Shown in pieces: positions 3,219-19,558 of a stretch of 22,781 bases of DNA. Origin of the DNA: an uncultured Alphaproteobacteria bacterium (GTDB taxonomy: Bacteria; Pseudomonadota; Alphaproteobacteria; CBDUZE01); the NCBI GenBank assembly GCA_965371625.1, contig CBDUZE010000060.1, positions 1-22,781 of the forward strand. Reading direction: 5' to 3'. The translations under genes and the position numbers were made by a program. Each line of letters begins with the position of its first letter. Positions within the stretch are counted from its first letter, which is position 1. A model generated the notes under the pieces. It was not told the origin of the DNA. It ran no database searches and worked only from the letters and a program-made list of their open reading frames with translations.

Positions 3219-4268
<1,050 letters not shown>

Positions 4269-4484
4269 AACGCGCACTCAGGAAACTCTGATGTTGACTT
4301 GTGCAACCAATGTCCGTCATCAGACGCAAAGCGGATTCTTTGGCCGAGATTGGTTTATATCTGCAATCGAGCCAACTCGGGCCGTGATGATCCATAATCG
4401 CCTTGTGAGGGTGGTACAAAAACCCTAATGATGTTAATGCCACCACTGACCTGAAATTTGATAATATATCACTCGTAGATCGGC

Positions 4485-6050
4485 ATGGGAGAGTTCGCTA
4501 AAATGGGTTTTTCGTCTGAAATTAGAGAGAATGCCCTCGTTAAAGCTGCACGGTGCTGCTGTGTATGTAGACGATTTAGGGGCGTTGGGGTAGAGGTACA
4601 TCACATTGTTCCGGCCTTGGATGGTGGCTCAAGCGATCTTGATAACGCGATTGTCTTGTGTTTCGACTGCCATTGTGCCGCAGGACATTATAATCCCAAA
4701 CACCCAAGAGGGACTAAATATAGCCCCAGAGAACTCCGTAGGCATAGAGATAACTGGTACAGATCCGTTGAAGAAGCAGGCGCTCAGCTGCGCGAGGACG
4801 ATGAATTTTCCGGTTATTACGGGCGGCATTTGATTTGTCTGGACAATGAAGCTGCACGCGATCTTATAGCGGCTAACAAGGACCAAATACCGTTTCGGTA
4901 CGATTACCTCTTAAAGAACGACGTCTTTCGGTTCATGGCCGAGGTTTTAGACGACAATTTGCCTTTTTCTTGGACAGGTTCCGATAATCAACTCGGCCAT
5001 TATAGGGGCAGAGGAGACTACAGTTCCCTGGAAGATTTCCACGATCAACACCCCGAGTTTGAGAAGCAATTCAGCCGTCCACTTACCGCAACAGACATTG
5101 TGGAAGGTGGGCTGGTTCCTTCCAAGATGATGCGTAAGATAGTAGATAACGGATTCCCTCCTTCTGAATTGGGGAAAGTATGCGCGGAAGTGGATGATTG
5201 TGGTGGAGGTGTATCGTATTTTGTTGCGATGCGGCGGCCGCTGTTTGTATTTGCAGAAATAAGGAACACCTCCTCGGAACAGTTTAGATTATCGGGATTA
5301 GTTACTCGAAAGGATAAAGACAGACCCTTTGTTTGTAAATTTGATGACTGGGATGAAGGCAAACTCGCTGCAATCCCATACGGGAATTTGGTATTAAATC
5401 CCGGAGAAGTCCTTCTCATTCCAGAATGTGTTCTGTTGAGCTCTCAAAACCACGACCCGTTAAATACCGAATTCGTGGAAATGGAGGACATGAGTCATGA
5501 ACAAATGCAAGCCGTCGGCTTCCGTACAACCGCCATGAAAGACGACTTCTATCGGTTTGGACCAGCGCTTAAGCTGGAAGGCTTCGATCTCGAAGTTGGC
5601 AACGAGATAAGGAACGTACCCATCCACAGGTTCGATCCTTCGAAATGCTATGTATACTACCGAGCATGGATGTGCGGAAGCTGTCCCCACTTGTACGTTT
5701 TCGACAAACATACCGGATGGAAATATCTGGGCGAGATCCTAGCGAAATCCACTAACAATGGATCGAGAACTGAGAGAGTGTCGATTCCTGAGGGCGTAAC
5801 AAGAATACGTATTGTTGAGACGGACTTCGAAATAACCCATATCGAAAGTATTGACTATAGGGATCAGCAACTAGTCGAGAGGCCCATCCGTTTGCGGCAA
5901 GGTGATTCCCTTGAACTGGAAGTTAATGGTCCAGGCATCCTTTCCGTGATTGGAAGATACCATGCACGAATCATGAGCCCTCGTTGTTACCTTCAATTAC
6001 GCCAGAAACTAAGTTTGCGGAGCGCTTATGAGCACACCGTTCTAGGATAA
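4485..6050 (+). CDS. HNH-nuclease-motif protein (521 aa) with a large C-terminal region I cannot assign
   Basis: N-terminal CCCVCRRF-x8-VHHIVP-x10-DNAIVLCFDCHCAAGH fits the C-x2-C ... HH ... N ... C-x2-C-H HNH signature. A second in-frame ATG at 4503, with GGAGAG upstream, is an alternative start. A -10-like gataat/taatat lies at 4460..4467. Confidence 0.75.
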   Translation: MGEFAKMGFSSEIRENALVKAARCCCVCRRFRGVGVEVHHIVPALDGGSSDLDNAIVLCFDCHCAAGHYNPKHPRGTKYSPRELRRHRDNWYRSVEEAGAQLREDDEFSGYYGRHLICLDNEAARDLIAANKDQIPFRYDYLLKNDVFRFMAEVLDDNLPFSWTGSDNQLGHYRGRGDYSSLEDFHDQHPEFEKQFSRPLTATDIVEGGLVPSKMMRKIVDNGFPPSELGKVCAEVDDCGGGVSYFVAMRRPLFVFAEIRNTSSEQFRLSGLVTRKDKDRPFVCKFDDWDEGKLAAIPYGNLVLNPGEVLLIPECVLLSSQNHDPLNTEFVEMEDMSHEQMQAVGFRTTAMKDDFYRFGPALKLEGFDLEVGNEIRNVPIHRFDPSKCYVYYRAWMCGSCPHLYVFDKHTGWKYLGEILAKSTNNGSRTERVSIPEGVTRIRIVETDFEITHIESIDYRDQQLVERPIRLRQGDSLELEVNGPGILSVIGRYHARIMSPRCYLQLRQKLSLRSAYEHTVLG

Positions 6051-6098
6051 TCCAACCAGGAGAAAGATGAAATAGCAAAGCAGTATTGGGTGATCTGA

Positions 6099-7148
6099 AT
6101 GAGTAACTTCGCGCTCTGCTCCAATTGCTTCCAGGATCAAGGGCTCAAACTTGATGCTCAACAGTTCGGTCTCGTTGAGAGCTCGACTTGTCCAAACTGT
6201 GGTTCGGAAACCGGGCAAAAGTTGAGCTCGGACTTGATCGGGCATCTTGCTCATAGGTATTTCGTTCGAGGAAGCCTTCATCGTTGTGACTACGGCGCTG
6301 CACCAATAATCCAATTTAATGACCGTCAACAGACGAGTATAGATACTTCCCCGTGGTTCGAGTCGGATGTGCGCCTTATCGAAAAGACACTTGGCGTTGG
6401 CTTCTTCTATTATGCACCAAGAATGTGGATGGTTGGCGAAATTGAACCACTAAAAGCATTGATAGAGCCGGAAACCAGGGCCTCAATGATACGCCGTACC
6501 TTAGCAGAATACCCGATCATAACACTGAAAACTGAGCAGGTATTTTACCGCATTCGGAAATCTCCAGCGGATCCGACTGATTTTAGCGAATATGATAGTC
6601 TACCGATTGTTAGGGCAGGCGCCGGTCGACTTGATTCTAAGGGATTTTCTGTAATGTATTGTTCTCAGGATCTGCAAGTTTGTATCCATGAGTGCCGCCT
6701 CACCGCAGAAGACGAACTTTTTCTAGCGACGCTCGCAGCAACGAGAGACCTGCGGCTGCTTGACTTAACTGAGGTGCTTGAGGAAGAGGGTGTAACTGAG
6801 TTCGAGAGCCTTGATATTGCCATTCACATGCTGTTTCTCGCTGGCGATTACTCTTACAACATCACGCGAGAAATTGCCATGGCTGCGCATACAGCAGGAT
6901 ATGATGGACTTGTCTATCCGTCGTACTTCAGTCTTCTACGTACTGGGGGAATACCATTTGAGACGTCGTATCGAATTTCACACCGAATAGTCCCCCGACT
7001 GGCGGAGAGAGAAGGATCAAAGATCATTCCAAATCTCGCTCTATTTGGACGACCGATAGAACAAAATATTGTCAAAGTACGATGCATCAACAAGGTAATC
7101 ATCAATAAAGTTGAATATGGCATCCATTTCGGACCAGTGGGGTACTAG
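6099..7148 (+). CDS. Zinc-ribbon plus RES-domain protein (349 aa); putative NAD+-targeting toxin-type effector
   Basis: N-terminal CSNC-x20-CPNC (Cys4 ribbon). The central region YRIRK ... GRLDSKGFSVMYCSQDLQVCIHE ... YDGLVYPS matches the order and spacing of the Arg/Glu/Ser RES signature. RBS GGTGA sits 5 nt before ATG 6099, 48 bp after the HNH gene stop. Confidence 0.7.
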   Translation: MSNFALCSNCFQDQGLKLDAQQFGLVESSTCPNCGSETGQKLSSDLIGHLAHRYFVRGSLHRCDYGAAPIIQFNDRQQTSIDTSPWFESDVRLIEKTLGVGFFYYAPRMWMVGEIEPLKALIEPETRASMIRRTLAEYPIITLKTEQVFYRIRKSPADPTDFSEYDSLPIVRAGAGRLDSKGFSVMYCSQDLQVCIHECRLTAEDELFLATLAATRDLRLLDLTEVLEEEGVTEFESLDIAIHMLFLAGDYSYNITREIAMAAHTAGYDGLVYPSYFSLLRTGGIPFETSYRISHRIVPRLAEREGSKIIPNLALFGRPIEQNIVKVRCINKVIINKVEYGIHFGPVGY

Positions 7149-7361
7149 CCAACAACTGTACTCTTCGTTTCAGTGAGCAACATTCCGATGCGGCTAGACT
7201 CAACCGTTTCACAAAAGCGCGAAAGTCCCTTCCTTGTTAGGAGCCGTGAATCGAAGGACTACTCGTGTAGGCCCCTTACCGCATGGAAGCGGACATCGGT
7301 GAGGCGTTTTCCAGAGCCGTCGACAAGGCGGTTAGCGGGTGCACGCCCTAGCCCCCGCCCC

Positions 7362-7454
7362 CTACGCCGAGGCCCTGGGCGGCGGCCGCCTGGGCTGCCA
7401 GCCCACCCGGAAGGCCCGCACCACGTGGTGCAGCACGTAAAAGAGGATGGCGAG
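7362..7454 (-). pseudogene. Truncated 3' fragment (last ~30 codons plus TAG) of a paralog of membrane-protein gene 8769..9293; left copy of an imperfect direct repeat
   Basis: The minus-strand translation of 7362..7454 reads LAILFYVLHHVVRAFRVGWQPRRPPPRASA* against ILAILFYLLHHVVRSFRVGWQPRRPPPRSSAGSSD* at the genuine gene end. A 33-nt identical core ggcggcggccgcctgggctgccagcccacccgg is present at both sites. Confidence 0.55.
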
Positions 7455-7582
7455 ATTCCGTGTTCACGATCGAATTCACGGCGTTCAGGTTTTGTACTTG
7501 AAGAGCGAATTGGCACGATTGGGTTCATCGAGTTTACTAAGGGCTACGTTGTTTCATGAGCTTGGGCGAAGGAGGTGCGGCA

Positions 7583-8701
7583 ATGGGCGATGTGAGACCG
7601 ATTCCCGAAGCCATGGCGGCCATGCTCCTGATGGGGCACGGTGGAATCGACAAGTTGGTCTATCGCGACGATGTGCCGGTGCCGAGTCCGGCGGCTGGAG
7701 AGGTCCTGATCGAGGTCACGGCGTGCGGCGTCAACAACACAGACATCTGGGTGCGCGAGGGCGCCTACGGAACCGAAGACGATCCCGACGCCGTATCTTC
7801 CTTTCAGCGAGGCGACACGACCTTGAACTTCCCCCGTATTCAGGGTGCGGACATCGTGGGGCGGATCGCCGTGGTGGGTGCCGGCGTTGCCGAAGGCCGC
7901 ATCGGTGAACGGGTCATGGTCGACTTCAGCATCTACAACCGCGGCGGCGATGGCCTGACCGATATGGACTGCGCCGATATGGATTACATCGGCCACGGGC
8001 GCAACGGCGGCTTTGCCGAGTTCACGACCGTGCCGGCCGACCAGGCCCACGTCGTCGATACCGACATGACGGATATCGAACTGGCCACCTTCTGTTGCGC
8101 CTACATGACCGGCGAACATTTGCTTGAACGCGCCAATGTTCAGGCAGGAGAGCGGGTTCTCGTGACAGGCGCGTCGGGCGGCGTGGGCTCGGGCGCGATC
8201 CAGCTCTGCCGGGCGCGCGGCGCCATTCCCATCGCCCTGACGAGCCGAGACAAGGCGGAGGCGGTCAATTCGATTGGCGCTGAGGCTGTCATCGTGCGTG
8301 GCGAGGGCGATCTGGTCGAAGCGGTGGAGGTCGCCACGGGCGGTGAACCCATGGATGTCGTCATCGATGTCGTGGCAGGCCCTCTGTTCAACGACCTGCT
8401 GCGCGTTCTGCGGCCGGAGGGCCGCTATGCAACGTGCGGAGCGATTGCCGATCCGGTCGTGCAGCTCGACCTCAGGACCGTGTATCTCAAACATTTGCAA
8501 ATCCATGGCTCCTCCCAGGGCACTCGTGCGGCTTTTCAGCGCCTGGTCCGATATATCGAGCAGGGAAAATTGAAGGCTTTGGTGGGCGGCATCTACAAGC
8601 TCTCGGACCTCCACCGAGCGCAGAGCGACTTTAAGGCCAAGCACTTCGTCGGCAAGCTGGTGGTGGTTCCGGACTCGAAATGGGACGAGGCGACAGGCTA
8701 G
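7583..8701 (+). CDS. Zn-dependent alcohol dehydrogenase / quinone oxidoreductase (MDR superfamily)
   Basis: GEVLIEVTACGVNNTDIW ... GADIVGRIAVVGAGV ... VLVTGASGGVGSGAIQL (Rossmann GxGxxG). GGAGG RBS at 7571..7575, 7 nt before ATG 7583. Confidence 0.85.
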   Translation: MGDVRPIPEAMAAMLLMGHGGIDKLVYRDDVPVPSPAAGEVLIEVTACGVNNTDIWVREGAYGTEDDPDAVSSFQRGDTTLNFPRIQGADIVGRIAVVGAGVAEGRIGERVMVDFSIYNRGGDGLTDMDCADMDYIGHGRNGGFAEFTTVPADQAHVVDTDMTDIELATFCCAYMTGEHLLERANVQAGERVLVTGASGGVGSGAIQLCRARGAIPIALTSRDKAEAVNSIGAEAVIVRGEGDLVEAVEVATGGEPMDVVIDVVAGPLFNDLLRVLRPEGRYATCGAIADPVVQLDLRTVYLKHLQIHGSSQGTRAAFQRLVRYIEQGKLKALVGGIYKLSDLHRAQSDFKAKHFVGKLVVVPDSKWDEATG

Positions 8702-14077: not shown

Positions 14078-16633
14078 ATGTTGGAATTTGGCATAACGCT
14101 GCTGATCTCGGCGATCGTCGTCATCGCCATCGTCTACATCATCTCGATCTGGATCTACAAAAGGGCGCCCGCCAACATGGGCTTCATCCGCACCGGCTTC
14201 GGCGGCACCAAGGTGTGTCTGGGGCGGGGCGCCATCGTGCTGCCGGTCTTTCACGAGGTCTCCTGGATCTCGCTCGAGACCATCAAGCTGATCGTCAGCC
14301 GCTCGCGCGAGCAGGCCATCCTGACCTCGGACAACATCCGTGTCGACGTGGTGGCCGAGCTCTACGCCCACGTCGGCCACACCGAGGACGACCTGCTGAC
14401 CGCGAGCCGCAGCCTGGGCGAGAAGACCTTCGACGCCGACAAGGTGCGCAACTTGCTAGAGGCCAAGGTGGTGAGCACGCTGCGCTCCTACGCCGCGACC
14501 AAGACCTTGAATGAGCTCCACGAGAACCGGGACACCTTCGCCAAGGACATCAAGGCCAGCGTCGTCGAGAGCTTCCAAGCCAACGGCCTGGCCCTCGAGG
14601 AGGTCACGATCGTCACCCTCGAGCAGACCTCGAAGGAGCACTTCAACCGCGACAACGTGTTCGACGCCGAGGGCCTCAGGATCATCACCGAGATCACCTC
14701 GAAGGCGCGCCGCGAGGTCCACGACACCGAGAAGCGGACCATCGTGTCGTTGCGCCAGAAGGACCTGGATACCCAGCTCGAGCTGCTCGAGATCGAGCGC
14801 CAGGAAGCTTTCGCGCGGGCCGGCCAGGACAAGGACATCTCCAACGAGGAGGCGCTGCAGGTGGGGCGCAAGCAGATCTTCGTGCTCGATCAGCAGAAGG
14901 CGGTGGAGGAGAAGGAGATCGAGAACGAGCTCGAGTTGGAGCGCAGGCGCACCGAGCGCGAGATCTCGATCACCGAGGAGGGACAGCACCGCGAGGCCTC
15001 GGAGATCCGCAAGGCGCTCGCCTTGGAGCAGGAACGCCGCGACAAGGAGATCGCCATCATCGCCAAGGCCAAGGAGGAGGAGCTGGCCGAGATCGCCCGC
15101 GGCCTGGCCCGCGAGGGCGCCGAGAAGGAGCGCGACGTCGAGCTCGCGCACAAGGAGCGGGAACGCCAGCAAGCCGACATCGATCGCGTCACCGCGGTCG
15201 CGGGCCACGAGGAGACGGCCAAGGACAAGCGCCATCAGGCCGAGATCGAGAGCGACCTTTCGATGCGCAGGCGCAACCTCGAGAACCGGCTCGCGGTGCT
15301 CGATATCGAAAAGGAGGAAGCGCTGGCCACGGCCCGCCAAGAGCACGACGTCTCCAACGAAAAAGCCCGCGTGCTCAGCGAGAAGCAACGCTACATCCTG
15401 CAGCAGCGCTGGGAGGTCGAGCAGGAGGAGATCGACAAGGACCAGGCCTTCGAGAAGGCGCAGATCAACAAGGAGGCCTCGGTGATCGACGAGGGCAAGA
15501 CCCGCGAGGCGGCCGAGATTCGCCGCGCCCTCGCCCGCGAGCTCGAGGAGCGGGAGCGCGAGATCGCCCTCATCGCCAAGGAACAGGAGCGCGAGAAGGC
15601 CGATATCCGCCGCTTCCTGGCGCGCGAGACCGAGGAGCGCGACCGCGAGATCGCGCTCGCCGACAAGACCCGTCAGCTCGAGGAGGCGGAGGTCAAGCGC
15701 CTCAAGTCGAGCGCCGAGCGGGAGCAGGTCGAGCACGAGGTCGAATCCGTGCGCATCGTCGCCGACGCCCGGCGCGACAAGGACATCGACCGCATCGAGG
15801 CCGAGAAGCTCGCCGAGAGCCGGCGCATCGAAGAGGAGAACAAGGCCCAGATCAACCGCATGCACATGGTCACCCAGTCCGAGGCCCGCAAGCTCTCGGC
15901 CGAGCGCGAGGCCGATGCCACCCTGATCAGGGCCAAGGCCACCAGCGAGGCCCAGGAGATCACGGCCGTAGGCATCGAGCGCGAGGCCGGCGCCAAGGGC
16001 CGGGCCGAGATGGAGATCGAGGGCCTGCGCGTCGAGAACACCCAGCGCATGCTCGAGGCCGAGGCCACAGGCATCGAGGCCAAGGCGACGGCGCTCAAGA
16101 ATTACGACGAGGTCGCCACCTTCCTCGAGCTCGCCAAGCTCCACATCGAGGCCGAGCGCGACATCCACATCGACCAGGCCAAGGCCATGGGCAACGCGCT
16201 GCAGCACGCCCAGATCCGCATGTACGGCGGCGAGGGCGGCACCGTCGACACCATCCGCGGCATGTTCACCACCGGCTTCGGCCTCGGTGAGGTGCTCGAG
16301 GGCGTGGCCCACTCGCTGCCCGACGGCTTGCGCGAGCGCTTCGCCGAGAACGGCCTCAGGGGCATCTTCGGCCGCCCCTACCGCTCCAGCGCCTTCCACG
16401 ACTCGGTCGAGCTGCTGGACGGGCTGGTGCGCGAGGCGATGGGCAGCGCCAAGGAGCGCGACGTGCCCTTCGCCCAGGCGGTCGCCCTCATGGAGGAGAA
16501 GGCCGGCGACGACGAGGCCCGGGTCAAGGCGGTCGAGCTCTTGAAGGAGATCAACGAGCACGGCGTCTTCGACGACGTCGCCTTCGAGAAGGTGTGGGCG
16601 CTCCTGCAGGCCACCGCCAAGTCCTCCGGGTAA
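14078..16633 (+). CDS. yqiK: Flotillin/YqiK-family SPFH (band-7) membrane protein, 851 aa, with an internally duplicated coiled-coil region
   Basis: N-terminal TM helix, then GFIRTGFGGTKVCLGRGAIVLPVFHE ... TIKLIVSRS ... IRVDVV and TSKEHFNRDNVFDAEGL, nearly identical to motifs of E. coli YqiK. Two divergent tandem ~100-aa coiled-coil units (LEIERQEAFARAGQDKDISNEEAL ... and LDIEKEEALATARQEHDVSNEKAR ...). Confidence 0.9.
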   Translation: MLEFGITLLISAIVVIAIVYIISIWIYKRAPANMGFIRTGFGGTKVCLGRGAIVLPVFHEVSWISLETIKLIVSRSREQAILTSDNIRVDVVAELYAHVGHTEDDLLTASRSLGEKTFDADKVRNLLEAKVVSTLRSYAATKTLNELHENRDTFAKDIKASVVESFQANGLALEEVTIVTLEQTSKEHFNRDNVFDAEGLRIITEITSKARREVHDTEKRTIVSLRQKDLDTQLELLEIERQEAFARAGQDKDISNEEALQVGRKQIFVLDQQKAVEEKEIENELELERRRTEREISITEEGQHREASEIRKALALEQERRDKEIAIIAKAKEEELAEIARGLAREGAEKERDVELAHKERERQQADIDRVTAVAGHEETAKDKRHQAEIESDLSMRRRNLENRLAVLDIEKEEALATARQEHDVSNEKARVLSEKQRYILQQRWEVEQEEIDKDQAFEKAQINKEASVIDEGKTREAAEIRRALARELEEREREIALIAKEQEREKADIRRFLARETEERDREIALADKTRQLEEAEVKRLKSSAEREQVEHEVESVRIVADARRDKDIDRIEAEKLAESRRIEEENKAQINRMHMVTQSEARKLSAEREADATLIRAKATSEAQEITAVGIEREAGAKGRAEMEIEGLRVENTQRMLEAEATGIEAKATALKNYDEVATFLELAKLHIEAERDIHIDQAKAMGNALQHAQIRMYGGEGGTVDTIRGMFTTGFGLGEVLEGVAHSLPDGLRERFAENGLRGIFGRPYRSSAFHDSVELLDGLVREAMGSAKERDVPFAQAVALMEEKAGDDEARVKAVELLKEINEHGVFDDVAFEKVWALLQATAKSSG

Positions 16634-18577: not shown

Positions 18578-19558
18578 TCAGAGCTCCTTGCGGATGTTGA
18601 CCAGCCTTAAGATGATGATCACCCCGATCATCATGGCGAGCATCAGCATCAGCGCGTTGACGGCGGCAAAGGGGTAGTTGGCGATGGCGTAGTAGTTGAG
18701 GATCACGGTGCCGGTGGTCGAGGTCTTGCCGCCGTAGACCACCACGGCGGTGGCGAACTCGCCCATGATGATGACGAAGATGAAGATCATGCCGATCGCC
18801 ACCCCGGGCAGCGACAACGGCGCGATGATCTCGCGGAAGATCTGGAACGGCGTCGCCCCCATGTCGCGCGCCGCCTCGAGGATCTCGCCGTCGATCTTGG
18901 CCAGGGAGAAGAAGATCGGCCCGACGCACAGCACCACGTAGAGCTGGACCAGGGCCATGGTGTAGCCGAACTCCGAATAGAGCAGGAAACCCAACGGCTT
19001 CTCGATCAGGCCCAGGTCGATCAACAGTGTGTTGAGCAGGCCGCGCCGCCCCAGCATCGGCAGCCAGGCCACGGCGCGGATCAGATAGCTGGTCCAGAAG
19101 GGCACCATGCACAACAGAAAGAGGGACATCTGCCACTTGAACGACTTCACCTGCATGGCCAGGAAGTAGGCGATCGGATAGCCGAGCGCGAGGCAGAACA
19201 TCATCACCACGGCGGTGTAGTAGAAGGTCGACCCGAGGGTCCTGATGAAGACGCTGGGGGTGAGAAAGCGGTCGGAGGCGGAATCGAAGAAACCCTCGGT
19301 GCTGAAGTATTCCCCGTAGTAGCCGAGGGTCAGGTCGGGTTCCATGCCGTGACCGGTCGCCTTCCAGAAGCTGAAGGCGACGATGCTCAGGAGCGGCACA
19401 ACCAGGAACACCAGCAGCCACAGCGCCGCCGGGGTGATCAGCCAGGCGACCGGGAAGCCGGGCTCGCGGCGAATCCTCGCGGGCTCGGCCTGGCCTTCCG
19501 GGGCCGCCGGCTGGGCCCCGATCAGGCCCGAATGGTAGGCGGGCTCGAGCCGGGACAT
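18578..19558 (-). CDS. ABC transporter permease (PotB-like)
   Basis: Hydrophobic TM segments and the EAA loop LEAARDMGATPFQIF. Confidence 0.85.
   Translation of the reverse strand: MSRLEPAYHSGLIGAQPAAPEGQAEPARIRREPGFPVAWLITPAALWLLVFLVVPLLSIVAFSFWKATGHGMEPDLTLGYYGEYFSTEGFFDSASDRFLTPSVFIRTLGSTFYYTAVVMMFCLALGYPIAYFLAMQVKSFKWQMSLFLLCMVPFWTSYLIRAVAWLPMLGRRGLLNTLLIDLGLIEKPLGFLLYSEFGYTMALVQLYVVLCVGPIFFSLAKIDGEILEAARDMGATPFQIFREIIAPLSLPGVAIGMIFIFVIIMGEFATAVVVYGGKTSTTGTVILNYYAIANYPFAAVNALMLMLAMMIGVIIILRLVNIRKEL

Follow-up and report, generated by a model that had tools for sequence, protein, structure and literature searches.

The closest described relatives of one of the proteins discussed here are aRES, stand-alone RES-domain defence proteins reported in a January 2026 preprint, which are not encoded in operons with other genes (Osterman et al., 10.64898/2026.01.28.702374). 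They protect E. coli from phages by cleaving nicotinamide adenine dinucleotide (NAD+) into nicotinamide and ADP-ribose-1''-phosphate (ADPR-1''-phosphate, ADPR-1P), and are defined as proteins of 300–600 amino acids that combine a RES domain with PF18870 (HEPN/RES-NTD1), at an HHsearch probability above 80% for the N-terminal domain (10.64898/2026.01.28.702374). Their mode of action, phosphorolysis of NAD+ to ADPR-1P, is resistant to the phage NARP1 repair pathway. A second relevant body of work has found the integron cassette pool to be rich in size-reduced defence systems (Darracq et al., 10.1101/2024.07.02.601686). Here we describe an AT-rich island of two genes in a 22,781-nt stretch of DNA from an uncultured alphaproteobacterium (the window; L### labels denote the related loci compared with it). 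Gene A encodes an HNH protein and gene B, immediately downstream, a zinc-ribbon and RES protein; what is new is that an uncharacterised HNH family is combined with a family of compact, aRES-like proteins. We read the island as a horizontally acquired unit of two self-contained defence-type genes that stem from the gene pool of integron cassettes and defence islands, became linked in this lineage and were integrated next to a COG0523 gene, and give this reading a probability of roughly 0.55. A defence or toxin role for A and B is plausible.

Gene B as a putative compact relative of aRES

The features of gene B are as follows:
6099 to 7148, plus strand: gene B, a 349-amino-acid zinc-ribbon and RES protein in the list of open reading frames (ORFs), a putative compact aRES relative
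6099 to 6383, plus strand: N-terminal Cys4 zinc-ribbon and helix domain of B (residues 1–95), a putative regulatory or sensing domain and likely counterpart of the aRES N-terminal domain
6543 to 7097, plus strand: RES catalytic domain of B (ADP-ribosyltransferase, or ART, fold; approximately residues 149–333), a predicted NAD+ phosphorylase

An earlier reading of the sequence (the original prediction) had described the second gene as a Cys4 ribbon fused to a RES domain, and this was borne out: Pfam places RES at residues 149–276 (E 1.5e-14), and C7, C10, C31 and C34 (CxxC...CxxC) are conserved throughout the family. Conserved residues of the RES domain (R151, R153, R177, Y187, E198, S275, S278 and N312) are of the same R/Y/E/S/N type as the NatT active site described in PMC11535050. 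Database searches returned 1646 matches to B, the best 120 of them at 59–73% identity; at the level of 50%-identity clusters the family has at least 833 representatives. It spans Alpha-, Beta- and Gammaproteobacteria, Poribacteria, Bacteroidota, Deinococcota and Ignavibacteria, with 50–73% identity maintained from Alphaproteobacteria to Bacteroidota and Deinococcota.

We compared a 62-sequence B profile with a 108-sequence aRES profile in hhalign. The three experimentally tested aRES sequences were taken from Table S4 of the preprint. At full length the two profiles aligned co-linearly with a probability of 99.6% (E 5.6e-24), B residues 2–276 corresponding to aRES residues 3–335. The RES domains alone gave 99.4% and cross-domain controls less than 1%, while the N-terminal domains alone gave 79.8% (E 1.5e-5 across 88 columns, CxxC pairs in register) in a comparison that differs from the criterion of the aRES authors (HHsearch against Pfam, >80%). 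Invariant positions of aRES line up with the conserved R/Y/E/S/N residues of B, and the three tested proteins begin with CxxC...CxxC at nearly the same positions as B. Since the alignment is co-linear and the active-site residues coincide, B is a divergent and shorter aRES relative whose architecture is the same.

Measured against the published definition, B contains a RES domain (PF08808) and its 349 residues fall within the 300–600 range, though it is shorter than every close aRES homologue (about 440–490 amino acids), and on the N-terminal criterion its formal membership looks borderline. As a family, B stands alone in the way that aRES do, with upstream genes that vary or are absent in L001–L012, L093–L096, L117 and L119; the window copy, which has A upstream as in three relatives, does so less strictly. 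The original prediction had recognised no named anti-phage system in the locus. PADLOC agrees as far as the pair is concerned (no system matched A plus B, with weak matches to the HNH region of A and none to B), but a related named system, aRES, now exists for B.

The RES fold that B has in common with MbcT, ParT, Res and NatT raises the question of whether the island is a toxin-antitoxin module of the Xre-RES type, in which B would be an NAD+-degrading toxin neutralised by A and the module would stabilise the island or promote persistence. RES toxin genes are indeed immediately preceded, on their own strand, by the gene for the antitoxin, and A and B are tightly spaced. But A, at 521 amino acids, has an intact HNH site and no helix-turn-helix (HTH), Xre or MbcA/ParS-type domain, in many genomes the gene upstream of B is not conserved or is missing altogether, and B's own 148-residue N-terminal domain is co-linear with that of stand-alone aRES. 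We rejected A as an antitoxin on the first two of these grounds, and consider the toxin-antitoxin explanation very improbable.

Some members of the B family are atypical. In two (P0244, 660 amino acids, and P0246, 468 amino acids) the N-terminus is longer by about 300 and about 120 residues, respectively, with no Pfam match; these proteins could be fusions or have mis-called starts. Others are decayed: in Flavobacterium akiainvivens (L012:6736–8633) an rve-family transposase gene directly precedes the match, which begins at residue 136, and at L011:2216–3293 the gene is split into two ORFs.

Gene A encodes an uncharacterised HNH family

The features of gene A are as follows:
4485 to 6050, plus strand: gene A, a 521-amino-acid HNH protein with a large beta-rich C-terminal region, from the ORF list
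4503 to 4784, plus strand: HNH nuclease module of A (approximately residues 7–100), with a zinc-binding CxxC...CxxC (C25, C28, C59 and C62) and catalytic H39, N54 and H63
5172 to 5969, plus strand: C-terminal beta-sandwich region of A (approximately residues 230–495), followed by a terminal helix (502–520)

As the original prediction had proposed, A has an HNH motif and a remainder that cannot be assigned. Pfam recognises HNH at residues 25–65 (E 1.2e-7) and nothing else significant, and a search of NCBIfam matched only the HNH region of IscB. The module carries a conserved AGHYNPxHPRGTK extension. In the AlphaFold model (mean predicted local distance difference test score, pLDDT, 89.5; predicted template modelling score, pTM, 0.86) the HNH module is followed by an alpha/beta region, beta-sandwich domains and the terminal helix. 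C239, C400, P401, H402, E445 and E449 are invariant in the C-terminal region, and their arrangement as C239, C400-P401-H402, E445 and E449 may point to a metal or ligand site. The beta-sandwich region is a putative sensor or binding module. We found 158 database matches to A and at least 491 confirmed metagenome stretches encoding it. A is probably a trigger-gated HNH nuclease.

The HNH module of A, together with its AGHYN..HP.GTK extension, also turns up in front of C-terminal regions of quite another kind. Two viral contigs (L097:5989–6642 and L098:5989–6642) encode a 217-amino-acid protein, which in L097 is 56% identical to A residues 12–97, and HNH-PdaC-DUF3298 fusions occur at L011:1178–2131 (directly upstream of B) and at L023:3491–4549. 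Because the module recurs with differing C-termini, A seems to belong to a modular family in which HNH is joined to a variable domain.

The surroundings of A are typical of defence and mobile neighbourhoods. Mrr-like nucleases neighbour it in seven loci, and further neighbours include Type I, II, IIG and ISP restriction-modification systems, GmrSD, Dcm-Vsr, the PADLOC candidates PDC-S02 and PDC-S23, SoFic, integrases, transposases and ParA. One arrangement recurs upstream of A in L023, L029, L078 and L081, where an Mrr_cat-like nuclease and an HNH-DUF3298 protein precede the A-family gene; a trypsin-like peptidase-TPR protein is encoded downstream in two of these loci, L023 and L029.

Both A and B might instead be inert cargo, that is, decaying or selfish genes with no current host function, A being for example a homing-type HNH endonuclease. 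The absence of an intact attC, an integrase or any other mobility gene, the isolation of the insert in a metabolic region and the decayed B genes of L012 (interrupted by the rve transposase) and L011 (split) would all suit such a history. However, both ORFs are full length with every invariant catalytic and zinc residue intact, purifying selection acts strongly on both families across phyla, and neither 2.9 million viral contigs nor phage structure libraries contain full-length A, in contrast to homing HNH genes. We therefore hold this explanation to be quite unlikely. A phage origin was likewise rejected, as full-length A was found in none of the 2.9 million viral contigs and B in only four, and in no deposited phage genome. 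In a plasmid search B was found on one Polaromonas plasmid and A gave only HNH-module matches.

The two families are mostly found apart

The original prediction was supported only in part. Its central claim, that A and B form a single system of a sensor-nuclease and an NAD+-degrading effector, found no support in the comparison with related loci. An A-type gene lies upstream of B in one of the 12 genome loci found with B (L002); upstream of the others we found an HNH-PdaC-DUF3298 protein, a DUF4145 protein, an 8xMP protein, an insertion sequence (IS) transposase interrupting B, or nothing recognisable. None of the four viral-contig B loci has A or any recognisable B partner, and A is absent beside two of the closest B relatives (L117 and L119, 69–71% identity). 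From the other side, we surveyed 80 metagenome loci found with A, 49 of which are non-redundant and extend at least 1.1 kb downstream. B is present in four of these 49 and absent from the remaining 45. Among all 80 loci, B is adjacent to A in L013, L016 and L029 and lies nearby on the opposite strand in L091, and none of the next-closest A relatives (52–55% identity) has B. Since the families mostly occur apart, A and B are probably not an obligate two-part system.

Further evidence comes from L029 and L023, which have 88–91% DNA identity on both sides of a single difference: a 1066-bp segment consisting of the B gene and about 20 bp of leader in the former, in place of 78 bp in the latter. 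There is no attC at the junction. Because the two loci differ only by B, it can be gained or lost beside an unchanged A. The 78 bases themselves (L023:6245–6322, replacing L029:6565–7630) are unrelated to the segment, though they may retain traces of the ends of B.

In the lineage of the window, the two genes have nevertheless travelled together. A proteins from L002, L013 and the window group in one clade (61–64% identity), and at each of these loci B follows A directly downstream; L016, which has a partial A at 63%, is arranged likewise. The gap between A and B is 48 bp in the window, about 25–30 bp in L013 and nil in L002, where the ORFs abut. The flanks are unrelated:
Window: COG0523 gene and zinc-dependent dehydrogenase gene
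L002: Type I restriction enzyme and YgjP-like peptidase genes
L013: gene for a Toprim-AAA_25 primase-like protein
L016: O-antigen ligase and HAD hydrolase genes

Because the pair is intact in these four contexts, it has moved as a unit in this lineage. On the gene-neighbourhood check that had been proposed, A and B are adjacent in unrelated contexts and A does lie in defence neighbourhoods, but most members of each family are unpaired.

Another possibility is that A and B make up an optional two-gene defence module, cooperating where they meet while each is also able to work or exist alone. The C-terminal domain of A could, for example, sense infection and activate or potentiate B, or nuclease activity and NAD+ depletion could act in synergy. 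The window and the loci L002, L013 and L016 all preserve the gene order and a spacing of 0–48 bp despite protein identities of 61–66% and four unrelated sets of flanks; B has been juxtaposed independently with a 31%-identical A in L029 and, in a third and divergent arrangement, in L091; another protein with an N-terminal HNH (HNH-PdaC-DUF3298) lies directly upstream of B in L011; and A and B are identical in GC content at the first, second and third codon positions (GC1, GC2 and GC3). Set against this are the mostly unpaired state of both families, the clean presence or absence of B next to an unchanged A in L029 and L023, and the autonomous action of the tested aRES relatives. In addition, A-linked B proteins resemble one another (63–66% identity) no more than they resemble unlinked B (69–72%), and cassette arrays and defence islands yield adjacency with no interaction. 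We rate an optional module as a tentative and unlikely alternative. A more specific version, in which the A family consists of new HNH nucleases that are widespread, travel on cassettes, act in defence as single proteins and carry an undescribed beta-sandwich sensor, and was recruited in the window lineage together with a miniaturised aRES into a coupled two-gene system (e.g., with the A sensor gating B), we also regard as unlikely.

Relatives of both genes are integron cassettes

Our preferred reading, of two self-contained genes brought together by transfer, gains support from the cassette context of their relatives. In several loci B is flanked by GTTAGGC or GTTAGGT cores and by RYYYAAC...GTTRRRY palindromes. 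A strict scan for attC-like sites, with both cores base-paired, gave 15 matches in 950 kb and none in shuffled sequence; a relaxed scan gave 14 matches versus 2–5 in shuffles, and a covariance model found ten further attC-like sites, nine of them on the gene strand. Such sites abut A on its downstream side in L038, L044, L049, L072, L073 and L089 and on its upstream side in L062, L068 and L087, and lie immediately after B in L005 and L117, with the site in L117 folding at z = −7.6. Those found by the covariance model in L049 and L089 follow A by about 85–90 nt. In L005 an array of three sites includes B as a cassette, and in L072 an array of the same number surrounds A. The sites are:
L005: 3578–3655, 4674–4742 and 5217–5270
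L038: 4449–4520
L044: 2134–2212
L049: 6542–6613
L062: 18–107
L068: 1292–1428
L072: 745–825, 2866–2937 and 3655–3737
L073: 6542–6606
L087: 4314–4382
L089: 2513–2598
L117: 1711–1769

Because attC-like sites bound relatives of both A and B, we place both families, on these sequence features, in the integron cassette pool. Several of the related loci are co-oriented cassette arrays, and since such arrays are structurally co-oriented and tightly packed, the same-strand packing of A and B can be explained with no operon.

In the window itself the covariance model found no attC in the island, and there is no hairpin after B (z 0.13). One candidate remnant was found:
7146 to 7242, plus strand, directly after the B stop: possible decayed attC, with partial similarity only

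This segment aligns with the 5' arm of the attC that follows B in L117 and L119 (ACTCTTCGTTTCAG); it and L119 have CTCAACCGTT in common, with the likeness stopping at the GTT of the R' core, and GTTAGGA occurs downstream of B at 7232–7238. It is possibly a decayed attC, a weak inference because the segment neither folds as a hairpin nor matches the covariance model. The best match to the attC model in the window (18986–19040, minus strand; 16.6 bits, rough E 0.02) falls inside an ABC-transporter permease gene and was taken as chance.

The island and its surroundings

The abrupt shift in composition and codon usage that the original prediction had placed right after the COG0523 stop is clear in our data. 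Across the window GC content is about 0.70 outside the island and 0.46–0.48 within approximately 4269–7300, and on a fine scale the drop falls at 4240–4270, no more than 30 bp from where the COG0523 gene, which encodes cobW and CobW_C domains, ends with its stop codon (4268). GC3 is 0.47 in A and 0.45 in B versus 0.95 in the COG0523 gene and 0.94 in a hydantoinase gene. A shift of this kind across 3 kb is far beyond chance. The matching GC1, GC2 and GC3 of A and B, like the recurrence of the pair in four unrelated contexts, point to their joint acquisition. The proposed extent of about 3.1 kb (4269–7370) fits the sharp left edge, but the right edge is less sharp: GC is 0.52 at 7149–7300, followed by a GC-rich patch (7310–7400) and by AT-richer sequence up to the dehydrogenase start at 7556. 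Only two long ORFs lie in the island, A and B, both on the plus strand and 48 bp apart, exactly as predicted. Two non-coding segments complete it:
4269 to 4484, plus strand: AT-rich island leader, GC 0.46 versus 0.70 upstream, beginning right after the COG0523 stop
6051 to 6098, plus strand: 48-bp A-B spacer, with no attC and no terminator (fold z-score 1.26)

The leader contains a sigma-70-like promoter match (4437–4465) 20 bp 5' of the A start, though such sites are no more numerous than shuffled expectation, and scans of the island for promoters and terminators likewise gave counts not above it. DNA comparison detected no homology between the leader and related loci, and the covariance model no attC within it. 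More generally, homology between island DNA and related loci is limited to the two coding regions, and the boundaries of the mobile unit cannot therefore be defined.

No integrase or transposase was found among the scanned ORFs of the island or the rest of the window, as the original prediction had noted. At the island boundaries a tRNA scan found no tRNA genes, there are no flanking direct or inverted repeats, and Rfam gave nothing meaningful at a permissive E-value. Outside the island the window carries metabolic and transport genes, and because it is otherwise purely metabolic, the idea of insertion at a hotspot finds no support.

Several features at and beyond the edges deserve mention. 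The right edge (7301–7555) is composite, a 90-bp patch of 73–83% GC (7310–7400) lying between AT-richer stretches. The adjoining dehydrogenase gene (7556–8701) has a GC3 of only 0.76 versus 0.94–0.95 in neighbouring genes, and for this reason may be of different origin too. On the other side, the COG0523 gene encodes at 3900–3927 a His/Asp-rich stretch (HDHDHDHDH) by a short tandem CGACCA repeat; such stretches are typical of metal-binding COG0523 proteins. Further away, an 851-amino-acid ORF with an N-terminal SPFH/Band 7 domain (14078–16633, plus strand) coincides at 14.5–16.2 kb with a very strong plus-strand AT skew (0.3–0.47), suggesting an unusual repetitive or biased composition in its C-terminal part.

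A proposed mechanism and its weak points

By analogy with aRES, MbcT and NatT, from which we infer its activity and trigger, B probably works through zinc-ribbon-controlled NAD+ phosphorolysis; its fold, active-site residues and architecture come from the present analysis. The N-terminal zinc-ribbon domain would hold the C-terminal RES domain inactive until infection, when the RES domain would phosphorolyse NAD+ to nicotinamide and ADPR-1''-phosphate; the loss of NAD+ would arrest the cell and starve the phage. A would act as a single-protein HNH nuclease with its invariant His-Me active site as the effector and its conserved beta-sandwich C-terminal half as the part that binds a target or trigger. 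Neither protein would need the other. The two genes would have been joined as one transferable unit, probably through loss of the attC between neighbouring cassettes, and the unit would then have landed beside the COG0523 gene, where no intact attC or integrase is left.

Several observations weigh against this account. The autonomy of B is an extrapolation from aRES, since hmmscan, run at E values up to 10, recognises PF18870 neither in B nor in 43 relatives (the tested aRES proteins do match), the N-terminal comparison reached its 79.8% in a test other than the authors' own, and B is about 100 amino acids shorter than the tested aRES. For A, 'sensor' is a guess as a label for the C-terminal half, because structure comparison returned only generic matches, none of them informative, and BFVD gave nothing. 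The attC covariance model is small, having been built from eight sites, and as the window and the other A-B loci show neither a detectable attC nor an integrase, a cassette origin for the pair is deduced from its relatives. Finally, adjacency in about 8% of A loci, with roughly three independent origins at an identical or neighbouring position when L029 (31%-identical A) and L091 are counted, is far above random assortment of rare cassette families, and the pair has been kept together through about 35–40% protein divergence; this frequency and persistence suggest that linkage carries some selective benefit.

If B is active, it would extend the aRES mode of defence beyond the proteins tested so far, to a family of much smaller proteins that is highly conserved across phyla (at least 833 clusters at 50% identity) and partly spread on integron cassettes, and would offer a minimal model for the control of a RES enzyme by an N-terminal zinc ribbon. 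A, in turn, stands for an uncharacterised HNH family of considerable size (at least 491 metagenome stretches), found repeatedly in restriction and defence neighbourhoods and in cassettes, and is a reasonable candidate for a new single-gene defence. There is also a methodological lesson: tight same-strand pairs in small foreign islands can stem from cassette arrays and not from two-component systems.

Comparison with known systems

As in the cassette-borne defence systems of Darracq et al. (10.1101/2024.07.02.601686), relatives of A and B are single-gene, attC-bounded cassettes in co-oriented arrays, and B resembles a size-reduced version of a larger known system. The window copy differs in comprising two genes with no attC between them and no detectable attC or integrase; neither a 3' attC hairpin nor an IntI integrase or attI site was found in the window. 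The A and B families are not named in that study, which does include two His-Me nuclease systems, Sirona and Nemetona.

With the Xre-RES, MbcA-MbcT, ParS-ParT and NatR-NatT pairs B has a RES-fold toxin feature in common, but no Xre/HTH antitoxin gene (COG5642, DUF2384) lies upstream of it, no small HTH ORF separates A from B, and B is about twice the size of these toxins owing to its fused N-terminal domain. At the sequence level B matches none of the solved RES toxins: its profile retrieved no RES toxin from solved-structure sequences even at an E value of 10.

The resemblance to aRES is closer. Like aRES, B is a single polypeptide in which an N-terminal CxxC...CxxC zinc-ribbon and helical domain precedes RES in co-linear order, with conserved R/Y/E/S/N active-site positions and usually no conserved operon partner, and both occur in defence-type and mobile contexts. 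B differs from the larger aRES proteins (349 versus about 440–490 amino acids) in having no region of about 100 residues after RES and in that only the first 95 or so residues of its N-terminal part align. It also forms a separate, very tightly conserved family, with no member among 117 aRES matches and no aRES among the B matches listed, and in the window it is joined into a unit with an HNH gene.

A, for its part, resembles the Type IV McrA-like enzymes (EcoKMcrA, TagI and ScoMcrA) in its HNH with an intact H-N-H and zinc site, but has no recognised reader domain for modified DNA (SRA, PUA-like or similar). Only the HNH part of Cap5, from the cyclic-oligonucleotide-based antiphage signalling system (CBASS), aligns with A (106 residues), which has no SAVED domain, and the island has no cyclase gene (CD-NTase). 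Relative to IscB and Cas9, A has neither RuvC nor a guide-RNA apparatus. What sets it apart from all of these HNH effectors is its own layout, an N-terminal HNH followed by about 420 amino acids of family-specific alpha/beta and beta-sandwich domains.

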